Source: a virus
DNA: 28,400 nucleotides
Reading direction: 5' to 3' (one strand)
UHGV virus genome: UHGV-0126577
The notes beneath the pieces were generated by a model. The model saw only the letters and a list, made by a program, of their open reading frames with translations, had not been told where the DNA came from and ran no database searches. Below are positions 23,219-24,133 of this stretch, in pieces; the first letter of the stretch is position 1; every line of letters begins with the position of its first letter. The position numbers were made by a program, and so were the translations under genes.

Positions 23219-23295
23219 TTACCTCTGAGGTAATTAAAAACCACATAAGACATGAAATCAATAGAGTTTATAATATTTTGTTACCTAACAGGTAA
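23219..23295. promoter_or_regulatory. Two operator-like palindromes between the P-like gene and the nuclease-like gene
   Basis: TTACCTCTGAGGTAA at 23219-23233 and TTACCTAACAGGTAA at 23281-23295. A short hairpin GCGC-tatc-GCGC plus an A7 run at 23308-23327 sits just after the P-like stop. Confidence 0.45.
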
Positions 23296-23332
23296 TTATC
23301 GAGGCGTAAAAAAATGCGCTATCGCGCTGGTA

Positions 23333-24133
23333 TTACTTGATAAATCCTGCCGCCTTTCCCCGCCTGTATTCCTCCATCAGCCACTGCGCCGGTGTTATTC
23401 CCCCAAGGGTGGCGGCGTTAGGCATGCACCCGAAACTTCGCCCTGGTGGATGGTAAACGTCTCTCCCTGTGTCCGGAGGCGTACTCATGGGTTCTGGCTT
23501 TGCCTGTATGCTGATCACCGGATCGGGTATCTGCTGTCCGGAAGCCACCTTTTTCGCCCAATCATCGAGCAGCCTGCGCGCGTGTTTCTCAACCTCAATC
23601 TCGCTAAGCTGGCGCTGATACATTGCACGGCGGGTATCACATACGACCCAGTACATAACCGGATGTCGCCACGGGAATCTTTCGGGACCACCAGGATATA
23701 AACTTTTTTCCTTGCTGTACCGGTGAAACTCCGCCATCACATCGTCAATGGTGACGCCAAGAACCATCTTGCTGTCTTTACACCACTTGATGAATTGCCC
23801 TGGCGACGGCCAGAACGGAGACTCACTGGCGCGGGCGTGGCGCATACCAGCAGAAACCTGTTCACGGGTTCGGATCCCCCCTTCGGCAAACGCAGCAATC
23901 CACTGCTGTTTTGCAGCAACTTCCTGCTCTGGCGTCTTCAGGTTGGTTACCACTGCCGCCGGAAACAGTTGTTTCAGCTGTTTGAAAAGGGCATCAACAA
24001 GCCTCTCTGCTGACATGTTCACCACGTTGTCATTGTTGGTGTACTGATGCTCATAACCTGACATGCGAGAAAGGGCTTCTCCGTCACGGTTTTGTATCGC
24101 GGTAAAAACGTTGTTCACAAGAAATCCTCCCAT
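23333..24133 (-). CDS. Replication protein P-like (helicase loader), 266 aa
   Basis: Block ...KQQWIAAFAEGGIRTREQVSAGMRHARASESPFWPSPGQFIKWCKD... aligns by eye with lambda P (...RRQWVLAFRENGITTMEQVNAGMRVARRQNRPFLPSPGQFVAWCRE...). Overlaps the 3' end of the O-like gene. Confidence 0.8.
   Translation of the reverse strand: MGGFLVNNVFTAIQNRDGEALSRMSGYEHQYTNNDNVVNMSAERLVDALFKQLKQLFPAAVVTNLKTPEQEVAAKQQWIAAFAEGGIRTREQVSAGMRHARASESPFWPSPGQFIKWCKDSKMVLGVTIDDVMAEFHRYSKEKSLYPGGPERFPWRHPVMYWVVCDTRRAMYQRQLSEIEVEKHARRLLDDWAKKVASGQQIPDPVISIQAKPEPMSTPPDTGRDVYHPPGRSFGCMPNAATLGGITPAQWLMEEYRRGKAAGFIK

Follow-up and report, generated by a model that had tools for sequence, protein, structure and literature searches.

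The 120-bp gap between the lambda-P-like replication gene and the DUF1064 gene of this prophage reads as a self-contained control cassette, in which an internal promoter would be held by the prophage's own Rep-type repressor. We put the probability that this explanation, taken as a whole and derived from sequence comparison, is correct at roughly three in four; within it, an internal promoter between two repressor operators ahead of a putative PD-(D/E)XK-type nuclease gene is supported by the conservation and layout described below. The window, that is, the whole stretch of 28,400 nucleotides that was analyzed, is a phiV10/epsilon15-type (Uetakevirus) E. coli prophage of a very common type; 529 of 5,426 complete E. 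coli genomes contain a member of this family, and the cassette of E. coli Combat2C1 is 100% identical. In the direction of transcription, the gap and its flanking genes comprise the following elements:

23333–24133, minus strand: replication gene of the lambda P type, which closes the preceding early segment (Pfam PF06992 Phage_lambda_P, E=1.5e-56)
23308–23327, minus strand: weak intrinsic-terminator-like hairpin, seen in the sequence and given as a putative terminator in the phiV10 record
23297–23307, minus strand: 11-nt linker between hairpin and distal operator, hypervariable among close relatives as judged by pi across loci
23280–23296, no strand assigned: distal operator, 17-mer ATTACC-TGTTA-GGTAAC, whose orthologous epsilon15 site is annotated
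23256–23264, minus strand: conserved block CTATTGATT, shared with other cassettes, which holds the putative −35 element TTGATT (23261–23256)
23233–23238, minus strand: putative −10 element TTTAAT, 17 nt past the −35 element
23218–23234, no strand assigned: proximal operator, 17-mer ATTACC-TCAGA-GGTAAA, placed as in relatives
23221–23225, minus strand: Shine-Dalgarno sequence GAGGT, 5 nt before the ATG
22871–23215, minus strand: gene of a 114-aa DUF1064 protein, a PD-(D/E)XK, T7-endonuclease-I-like putative junction-resolving nuclease (Pfam, PHROGs and conserved residues)

The first-pass annotation had noticed a hairpin and a T-run on the minus strand after the P-like gene, whose stop codon TAA occupies 23335–23333, and both are present: GCGC-GATA-GCGC (23327–23316) is followed by a single A and seven T residues (23314–23308). 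With its 4-bp GC stem and 4-nt loop the hairpin is weak (MFE −8.4 kcal/mol, z = −2.1) and falls below the 5-pair criterion of the terminator scanner; nevertheless, none of its 24 nt varies among 73 related loci. With a stem of only 4 bp, read-through from PR may dominate expression in lytic growth. The same annotation had described two operators with perfect 5-bp arms, and the 15-mers TTACC-N5-GGTAA are indeed found at 23219–23233 and 23281–23295. On the minus strand, the distal palindrome reads A-TTACC-TGTTA-GGTAA-C (23296–23280) and the proximal one A-TTACC-TCAGA-GGTAA-A (23234–23218), the arms of the latter actually being 7 bp long (TTACCTC-A-GAGGTAA). The distal operator lies upstream, 62 bp away from centre to centre, and the proximal operator spans the edge of the −10 element, the expected start site (about 23226) and the Shine-Dalgarno sequence. 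Its predicted overlap with the latter and its distance of 3 nt from the start codon likewise hold: GAGGT (23225–23221) lies within the right arm of the proximal palindrome, which is followed by 'atc' (23218–23216) and then by the ATG (23215–23213, minus strand).

The 23219/23281 pair is not special to the nuclease gene but part of a larger set, which is spread over the genome at operon starts. With at most one mismatch allowed, TTACC-N5-GGTAA occurs 10 times in the 28.4-kb window versus 0.38 times as expected from dinucleotide-preserving shuffles (shuffle maximum 2), and each of the ten is located either at the start of a gene or in non-coding DNA. Besides the pair in the gap, the set includes:

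26323–26399, plus strand: PL-type paralogous cassette, which immediately follows the rep terminator and precedes the leftward early genes
25563–25577, 25594–25608 and 25611–25625, no strand assigned: three operators between the divergent rep and cro-like genes (motif scan)
25226–25240, no strand assigned: single operator with 1 mismatch, just past the terminator of the cro-like gene and ahead of the replication genes
19719–19751, no strand assigned: pair of adjacent operators with a distance of 18 bp, immediately before the start of the terminase small subunit gene

We consider it highly improbable that these palindromes are chance matches or RNA-level elements such as hairpins, RNase III sites or a part of the terminator. 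While the 85-nt region does fold somewhat better than its shuffled versions (z = −2.4), since pairing is possible between the two palindromes or within each of them, this reading is opposed by the number of copies, by the position of the operators ahead of genes on both strands and by an Rfam scan of 22700–23800 that gave nothing above threshold and one sub-threshold snoRNA match. Moreover, the arms are kept as sequence rather than as pairing potential: across 73 loci, pi amounts to 0.002–0.05 in the arms (distal 0.05, proximal 0.002) versus 0.22–0.44 in N5, and the spacer varies without a compensating pattern. Near-invariant arms around a free N5 are what one expects of a protein site that is read via its half-sites, not of an RNA hairpin.

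The presumed ligand of these operators is encoded in the window itself:

25681–26265, plus strand: prophage repressor of the Rep type (phmmer homology to SPC32H Rep)

This protein had been taken for a CI-like repressor; instead, its 194 residues match the tetrameric SPC32H Rep (PDB 5D50; phmmer E=4e-42, residues 1–190), and this homology places it with the tetrameric repressors of the SPC32H Rep type, which are non-cleavable and controlled by an antirepressor. It is 98–100% identical across 75 related loci. According to the passages on Kim 2016 in PMC9638917 and PMC9986798, SPC32H Rep is a repressor that binds palindromic DNA as a tetramer and has its DNA-binding domain at the N terminus; the passage in PMC9986798 places its two DNA-binding ends ~100 Å apart and describes the structural mechanism of Rep repression as not extensively characterized. 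Rep proteins that share only ~40–55% identity retain the N-terminal recognition stretch NLV(N/S)RW, and phages with such Reps use the same half-site. All E. coli, Salmonella, Klebsiella, Enterobacter and Hafnia-type relatives found have a Rep of the same type together with the recognition stretch and the half-site, and no relative that combines the same cassette with a different repressor type was found among 80 IMG/VR loci, Klebsiella/Hafnia-type prophages and the phage collection. With a single Rep type in every relative found, the set offers no contrast in which operator and repressor change together, which would be the strongest comparative evidence.

The operator consensus in the window is identical to that of the sites annotated in epsilon15, a 17-bp hyphenated palindrome (ATTACC-N5-GGTAAT) with TTACC/GGTAA half-sites and a 5-bp spacer. 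The epsilon15 record (NC_004775) marks the orthologous distal site (35906–35922) as 'protein_bind', repressor, lysogeny; its annotated sites precede terS and the gp3 late unit or lie within the PL region and at the junction of replication and nuclease genes, the site at 12–27, annotated as repressor-binding, being the equivalent of the terS sites in the window. Left unmarked in that record are the proximal site (35969–35983), the promoter and the three rep/cro sites. The non-coding epsilon15 cassette is homologous to ours with about 74–76% nucleotide identity. Kropinski et al. reportedly gave an operator consensus like ATTACCWDWWNGGTAAT with the epsilon15 genome in 2007; our literature search with the operator consensus string returned no match. 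The two repressors are only about 42% identical (PMC9782041). The reading of the cassette is not new and opens no new question, as epsilon15 already carries annotations of the motif and of this very position, and structures of the repressor family have been solved.

Might the palindromes mainly serve another protein, be it the 76-aa Cro-like lytic repressor, a host factor or, in the role of an activator, the phrog_536 regulator? We regard this as quite improbable. The window does encode a Cro-like protein (phrog_35 'transcriptional repressor'), and operators common to Cro and the repressor are a feature of lambdoid switches; such sharing would, however, add to control by Rep and not replace it. 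Furthermore, prophages of E. coli, Salmonella, Klebsiella and the Hafnia type carry the motif together with Rep-type repressors, whose DNA-binding helix is conserved, and in epsilon15 it was the repressor to which the annotators ascribed the sites.

Between the two operators, TTGATT-17-TTTAAT forms a candidate promoter that matches 9 of 12 hexamer positions; position 2 of the −10 element, where an A is highly conserved, is a T, and for this reason the consensus scanner made no call. The last two bases of the −10 element coincide with the first two of the proximal 17-mer. In paralogous and orthologous cassettes the −10 place is taken by AATTAT, GATTAT, TTAAAT or ATAAAT, and in the Klebsiella cassette by a good TATAAAT. 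The terminator and the distal operator come first, then the −35 CTATTGA, which a 17-nt spacer separates from the −10, and finally the proximal operator, the Shine-Dalgarno sequence and the ATG. This layout, with its 62-bp operator spacing, recurs ahead of the leftward early genes as well as in phiV10, TL-2011b, epsilon15, SPC32H and Klebsiella prophages, the distance of the CTATTGA block being likewise the same in the epsilon15, SPC32H and Klebsiella cassettes; the proximal placement ..GGTAAatcATG is identical in epsilon15, SPC32H, phiV10 and TL-2011b. In the PL-type cassette of the window, the parts are an operator at 26323–26337, a −35 TTGACA at 26357–26362, a −10 AATTAT and an operator at 26385–26399, with the operators again 62 bp apart from centre to centre and the CTATTGA block at the same distance; the terminator preceding this cassette is strong (−21 kcal/mol). 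By blastn, the cassette was also found in phages in which both flanking genes are different and a RuvC-type resolvase gene follows, whereas none was detected outside Uetakevirus-type phages. Its retention where the flanking genes have been replaced supports the promoter reading. A second candidate, AAGACA-16-TATAAT on the plus strand (23247–23274), was attributed to chance, since its −10 element is not conserved in phiV10, TL-2011b or epsilon15.

The promoter reading has to be weighed against a roadblock, in which Rep binds both sites with no promoter between them and thereby provides a second lock against leakage from PR through the weak terminator. The sites do lie in the path of rightward early transcription directly past that terminator, Rep sites occur at many places over the genome, and the imperfect −10 element together with the silent scanner fits such a role. 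Nevertheless, we judge it unlikely, because the geometry and the arrangement of CTATTGA(−35), 17 nt and −10 are common to the leftward cassette, which follows a strong terminator and needs its own promoter. Additionally, the −35 block (pi 0.003) and the promoter spacer are nearly invariant in the 73 loci while neighbouring positions vary, and the Klebsiella version carries its good −10 element at the same place. Mycobacteriophage stoperators, which work as such roadblocks inside transcription units, are asymmetric and orientation-dependent, whereas the sites described here are symmetric.

The unit that the internal promoter is predicted to serve extends over several genes and closes with two features:

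19838–20185, minus strand: last gene of the unit, encoding a phage transcriptional regulator family protein (phrog_536, E=5.6e-54)
19771–19788, minus strand: strong terminator that probably ends the internal-promoter unit (terminator scan)

No other convincing minus-strand terminator or operator was found between 23215 and 19790. The downstream genes, previously thought to be nin-like, are accessory genes of the Eae/Ead/DUF551 type plus the phrog_536 regulator, whose counterparts in phiV10 and epsilon15 are annotated as 'transcriptional regulator'.

The assignment of the first gene to DUF1064, already proposed on first inspection, is borne out by Pfam (PF06356, 31.0 bits vs a cut-off of 24.7, E=3.7e-7), a family predicted to be PD-(D/E)XK by Feder & Bujnicki 2005 (PMC1189080). 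The protein also matches phrog_190 'Holliday junction resolvase' (E=7e-43). The catalytic residues on which its assignment as a nuclease had been made to depend are all present (E20, P56-D57 and E71-V72-K73); E20 and D57 do not vary among 95 homologues with 47–70% identity, in which the conservation of E71 and K73 is at least 90%. When the profile of 95 sequences was compared with PDB sequences, the top match was T7 endonuclease I at only E=0.01, the product of gene 3 (PDB 1M0D, 1FZR); in this marginal similarity, its catalytic D55/E65/K67 are matched by the motif YTPDF...E-x-K-G-x-W. The PDB copy searched held no solved DUF1064 structure. An AlphaFold2 model built with 33 close homologues is poor (pLDDT 56); at this confidence, its secondary structure (H20–32, E36–40, E44–47, E58–62, E67–70, H80–90, E94–100) has an order of elements that fits an alpha-beta-beta-beta-alpha-beta core, and a Foldseek search with it against the PDB gave no match at E≤0.001. 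In contrast to the window, the same cassette in epsilon15 precedes a gene for a RuvC-type resolvase and not DUF1064, and the DUF1064 slot holds a RuvC-type resolvase in Tyrion, too; this context supports DUF1064 as a putative functional stand-in for the RuvC-type enzyme.

From these observations, the following mechanism can be proposed. The weak terminator would end the PR-proximal segment, which comprises the cro-like gene and the replication genes, and the sigma-70-type promoter would restart transcription; its start is predicted near 23226, which gives a leader of ~11 nt. The restarted unit would contain the DUF1064 gene and ~3.4 kb of accessory genes including the phrog_536 regulator, up to the terminator at 19771–19788. 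Since the operators are 62 bp or about 6 helical turns apart, they lie on the same face of the DNA, and we infer that in the lysogen tetrameric Rep binds both sites cooperatively, possibly by looping, and blocks RNA polymerase. The unit would thereby stay silent whatever leaks from PR. Straight B-DNA of 62 bp measures ~210 Å vs the ~100 Å reach of Rep, which means that strong bending or two interacting tetramers would be needed. Upon induction, Rep would be removed via a LexA-controlled antirepressor, by analogy with SPC32H, and the promoter would then fire. The first product, a small nuclease of the T7 endonuclease I-type PD-(D/E)XK group, would most likely resolve branched replication or recombination intermediates.

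In SPC32H, whose Rep structures are available (PDB 5D50, 5D4Z), the operators of the same cassette are at 35972 and 36034, and a 114-aa DUF1064 gene follows; the Rep/Ant lysis-lysogeny switch of this phage was reportedly described by Kim and Ryu in 2013 and by Kim et al. in 2016. A Hafnia-type prophage follows the same logic with a different layout: terminator, TTGACA, two adjacent operators and then DUF1064. The proposed silencing of a promoter by a repressor oligomer at two phased sites, one of them over the core promoter, has parallels in the long-range looping of lambda CI at OR/OL and in the gal and lac repressors. Unlike lambda CI, however, Rep has a different architecture without an S24 self-cleavage domain, and unlike in all of these systems the spacing is short and fixed at 62 bp, with sites at many operon starts instead of two control regions. 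In serving many dispersed sites, late units included, with one repressor, the set resembles the P1 C1 operators and the L5 gp71 stoperators; these are asymmetric, and stoperators block elongation by orientation, whereas the sites of the window are symmetric and occupy promoter and ribosome-binding positions directly past terminators. Nearly every unit begins past a terminator and has its own predicted promoter and repressor sites, and one antirepressor-controlled tetrameric repressor would therefore hold each of them directly; in this respect the wiring of the family would do without the one or two master control regions, coupled to antitermination, of other designs. This may be of use in annotating these prophages and in engineering phiV10-type reporter phages.

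Only one aspect of the cassette, the hypervariability of its spacers, was unreported as far as our literature search went. In the 73 phiV10-like loci, N5 of the distal operator has a pi of 0.44 with 2–4 alleles per column and 28 different 5-mers, all four bases being seen in two of the five columns, and the 11-nt linker has a mean pi of 0.22 with up to 4 alleles per column. Four-fold degenerate sites (n=245) have a pi of 0.059, and none of them shows four alleles; in the same prophages, the variability of the distal N5 is therefore ~7-fold that of such sites. In the PL-type cassette, the distal operator has the same hypervariable pattern, while operators that overlap core promoter elements show no such hypervariability. 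That all operator spacers are hypervariable was rejected, as the rep/cro and terS-proximal sites are not, and the effect is therefore limited to distal operators and linkers. Gene conversion between the paralogous cassettes was rejected as well, the N5 words of the two distal operators showing no co-variation within genomes (mean Hamming distance 2.89 vs 2.97 shuffled). Whether this variability exceeds what relaxed constraint and small-scale mosaic recombination would produce, and thus reflects a mutational hotspot or diversifying selection, appears doubtful to us. If it did, a hotspot would suggest local mutation at DNA that is held permanently by the repressor tetramer in the lysogen, and selection would suggest that N5 diversity tunes how tightly each prophage locks this operon.

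Elements between the P-like gene and the DUF1064 gene, read from the sequence on the minus strand.
23335-23333, minus: stop codon of P
23327-23316, minus: small hairpin GCGC-GATA-GCGC, then A and seven T (23314-23308)
Between T-run and distal 17-mer, minus: 11-nt linker
23296-23280, minus: distal 17-mer ATTACC-TGTTA-GGTAAC (distal operator)
Between the 17-mers, minus: 45-nt stretch with TTGATT (23261-23256), 17-nt spacer and TTTAAT (23238-23233)
23234-23218, minus: proximal 17-mer ATTACC-TCAGA-GGTAAA (proximal operator), with the SD GAGGT within its right arm
Directly after the proximal 17-mer, minus: 'atc', then the ATG of the DUF1064 gene at 23215

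The first-pass annotation had read this sequence correctly: Hairpin and T-run, both palindromes, the SD overlap and the ATG spacing all lie where it had placed them. The hairpin (4-bp stem, -8.4 kcal/mol), the only one of these elements annotated in the phiV10 record, where it is listed as a putative terminator, may form with its T-run a weak terminator (23327-23308) that would set the unit apart from the PR-proximal genes, i.e., the cro-like and replication genes. A promoter-like match on the plus strand (AAGACA-16-TATAAT, 23247-23274), directed antisense into the P gene, is probably due to chance, as its -10 is not kept in phiV10, TL-2011b or epsilon15.

The surrounding region (22000-26500) shares ~98% identity with Escherichia phage phiV10 and with further podophages of the Uetakevirus (epsilon15-like) group, and a 351-bp piece across the cassette is present in 529 of 5,426 complete E. 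coli genomes, nearly always as a single chromosomal copy, which places the window in a very common family of prophages.

Genes around the cassette.
25681-26265, plus: 194-aa repressor (Rep), homologue of SPC32H Rep
25296-25526, minus: 76-aa Cro-like protein (phrog_35)
24933-25208, minus: small ORF without Pfam match (phrog_1081, unknown function)
24115-24930, minus: DnaT/HTH_36 replication initiator (Pfam)
23333-24133, minus: lambda-P-like protein (PF06992, E=1.5e-56)
22871-23215, minus: 114-aa DUF1064 protein (PF06356)
20291-22809, minus: Eae-like, DUF7739, Ead/Ea22 and DUF551 genes (Pfam, PHROGs)
19838-20185, minus: phrog_536 'transcriptional regulator' (E=5.6e-54)

The DnaT/HTH_36 initiator gene holds a tandem-repeat array (24494-24630) of a 24-bp unit, ATCCCGTTTTTGGGATCATTCAAC, repeated 2.6 times at 100% identity, and after it an 18-bp unit repeated 3.1 times, with a small inverted repeat TCCCG-TTTT-(T/C)GGGA in each unit; by analogy with lambda O, it looks like origin iterons within an initiator gene.

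Several lines point to the palindromes being operators of Rep: The excess of the motif, its location between rep and cro, the homology of Rep and the annotation of epsilon15 agree with the earlier proposal of repressor-type operators. With at most one mismatch, TTACC-N5-GGTAA (N5 being the central 5-bp spacer) has ten matches in the window, whereas shuffled sequences average 0.38 and never exceed 2, so that the palindromes are not products of chance; all ten lie at gene starts or in non-coding DNA. Two of them, together with a third copy carrying two mismatches, are located in the rep/cro gap (25563, 25594, 25611), the expected place for operators of the lysis-lysogeny switch. Over nearly its full length, Rep matches the Rep of Salmonella phage SPC32H (PDB 5D50, E=4e-42), which is described in secondary accounts (PMC9638917, PMC9986798) as a tetramer that binds palindromic DNA, comprises an N-terminal DNA-binding, a middle dimerisation and a C-terminal tetramerisation domain, and is disassembled by an antirepressor (Ant) instead of RecA-dependent cleavage. 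An N-terminal stretch with NLV(N/S)RW is kept in the Reps of epsilon15/SPC32H, Klebsiella and Hafnia-type prophages, which are otherwise just ~40-55% identical, and the TTACC/GGTAA half-site is common to all these genomes. Moreover, the epsilon15 RefSeq record marks exactly this 17-mer as 'protein_bind, repressor, lysogeny' at seven places, and the site at 35906-35922, between a replication gene and the next gene, occupies the position of the distal operator. The same record leaves three motif copies between the repressor and gp39 (33341-33402) without annotation, likewise the proximal site at 35969-35983, which abuts the resolvase start codon.

For epsilon15, annotation thus already covers the operator motif, its dispersal over the genome and the very position considered here; crystal structures and a described induction mechanism exist for the repressor family, and the DUF1064 assignment is twenty years old. 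The finding as a whole is already known; what we did not see annotated, namely the proximal site, the predicted promoter, the two-operator layout with its fixed 62-bp spacing and the paralogy with the cassette ahead of the leftward (PL-type) early genes, refines it.

This layout follows a fixed order in related and paralogous regions: terminator, ~11-nt linker, distal operator, 15 nt, CTATTGAnn (-35), 17-nt spacer, a -10-like hexamer sharing its last two bases with the start of the proximal 17-mer, and an SD in the right arm of the proximal operator. In nuclease-gene cassettes 'atc' and the ATG follow; the PL-type cassette has its first ATG ~20 nt later. A distance of 62 bp separates the operator centres in the cassette ahead of the DUF1064 gene and in all those listed below; as this is ~six helical turns, both operators would lie on one DNA face.

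Two-operator cassettes compared.
Window, leftward genes: operators 26323/26385, 62 bp, TTGACA-17-AATTAT
phiV10, both cassettes: 62 bp centre spacing
TL-2011b: 62 bp centre spacing
epsilon15: 35907/35969 and 32555/32617, 62 bp
SPC32H: 35972/36034, 62 bp
Klebsiella prophages: 5919/5981, 62 bp

Because a strong terminator (-21 kcal/mol) precedes the leftward cassette, the latter must hold a promoter, and the main argument for a predicted promoter between the operators ahead of the DUF1064 gene is that geometry and -35 block are shared; the Klebsiella cassette has TATAAAT at the -10 position. A Hafnia/Obesumbacterium-type prophage differs in layout and follows the same logic: ahead of its DUF1064 gene (5940-6003) stand a terminator, TTGACA and a pair of neighbouring operators with an 18-bp offset, of which the second extends into the start codon; a distal operator 62 bp away is absent. 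The non-coding cassette is found by blastn at ~75% identity even where both neighbouring genes differ, with matches only in Uetakevirus-type phages. In epsilon15 (35907-35983), E15, PAT1 and Tyrion it is followed not by DUF1064 but by a gene for a RuvC-type Holliday junction resolvase; here a non-homologous gene has taken the first place after a cassette of operators and putative promoter that is itself conserved. In TL-2011b (~1700-2068) the DUF1064 frame is broken by an ambiguous base and then stop codons, which probably reflects either an error of sequencing or assembly or a pseudogene; its record annotates a 54-aa ORF there instead.

Among 80 IMG/VR loci encoding a DUF1064 protein 97-100% identical to that of the window, we found 66 different 140-nt upstream sequences. 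Variation is sharply localised in an alignment of 73 of these loci: Mean pi is 0 in hairpin and T-run (24 nt), 0.003 in the CTATTGATT block and 0.002-0.05 in the operator arms, and reaches 0.22 and 0.44 in N5 of the proximal and distal operator, respectively. Kept arms around a variable N5 are, as judged from this alignment, what marks a site that a protein recognises by its half-sites. An RNA hairpin would demand compensatory changes, and the variation pattern argues against it; an Rfam search of the region gave no match above threshold. Returning to the operators, distal N5 and the linker before it (23286-23307) exceed by far the four-fold degenerate sites of the same loci (pi 0.44 and 0.22 vs 0.059), in prophages whose remaining sequence is 97-100% identical: N5 takes 28 different 5-mers, and two of its five columns contain all four bases, which no four-fold degenerate site does. 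The leftward cassette (26306-26332) is likewise hypervariable (distal operator 0.26, linker 0.18); no such hypervariability is seen in the operators of the rep/cro gap, in those close to terS or in the 61 nt of non-coding DNA after DUF1064. Gene conversion between the two cassettes is excluded as its source, as there is no co-variation within genomes. Identical flanks mostly carry identical cassettes, and the cassette is near saturation once flanks differ by ~1%. Three candidate causes stand side by side: constraint may be relaxed, with mosaic exchange on a small scale where modules join; DNA occupied by the repressor may be a local hotspot of mutation; or selection may act on how strong the operator is.

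We infer Rep binding, looping, promoter activity and terminator efficiency at the cassette. In a lysogen, Rep would occupy both operators: On the proximal one it would overlie the edge of the -10, the start predicted at ~23226 and the DNA of the ribosome-binding region, thereby excluding RNA polymerase, while the distal operator, six turns upstream in phase, would add cooperativity. Straight DNA of 62 bp measures ~210 Å. A single tetramer bridging both sites would need strong DNA bending, since its two DNA-binding ends lie ~100 Å apart according to PMC9986798; two interacting tetramers are an alternative. As the minus strand holds no further operator and no convincing terminator from the cassette to 19771-19788, the unit would extend ~3.4 kb to that point, with the phrog_536 regulator as its last gene ahead of those for terminase.

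Homology searches upheld the assignment of the first gene product to DUF1064/PD-(D/E)XK: The 114-aa protein scores above the Pfam cut-off for DUF1064, has a match to phrog_190 ('Holliday junction resolvase', E=7e-43) and carries the motif residues E20, P56-D57 and E71-V-K73. The catalytic residues are present on alignment, E20 and D57 being invariant and E71 and K73 kept in at least 90% of 95 representative homologues (47-70% identity). Its top PDB match is T7 endonuclease I (E=0.22 with the single sequence, 0.01 with a profile), on whose catalytic D55/E65/K67 D57/E71/K73 align; an AlphaFold model of poor quality contributed nothing further. As early as 2005 a PD-(D/E)XK nuclease was predicted for DUF1064 (PMC1189080), and we predict one of T7 endonuclease I type. 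Because epsilon15 and Tyrion carry a RuvC-type resolvase in this slot, we read the protein, with moderate confidence, as a junction-resolving enzyme.

Judging by motif positions, Rep appears to control nearly all transcription units directly and may do so for the late operons: Two sites 18 bp apart (19719/19737; 19719-19751) lie directly ahead of terS, just after a strong terminator, another (16573-16587) precedes the next late unit by ~70-100 nt, and phiV10 has further copies near its antirepressor and tail-fibre genes, lysis genes and int. A 224-aa TTG-start ORF for terS would contain both 19719-19751 sites; the true start is therefore probably, as in epsilon15, the ATG found where the second site ends. 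A single one-mismatch operator (25226-25240) follows immediately on the cro-like gene's terminator, ~20-90 nt before the small ORF preceding the replication genes, and suggests a third terminator-plus-operator junction of the rightward early region.
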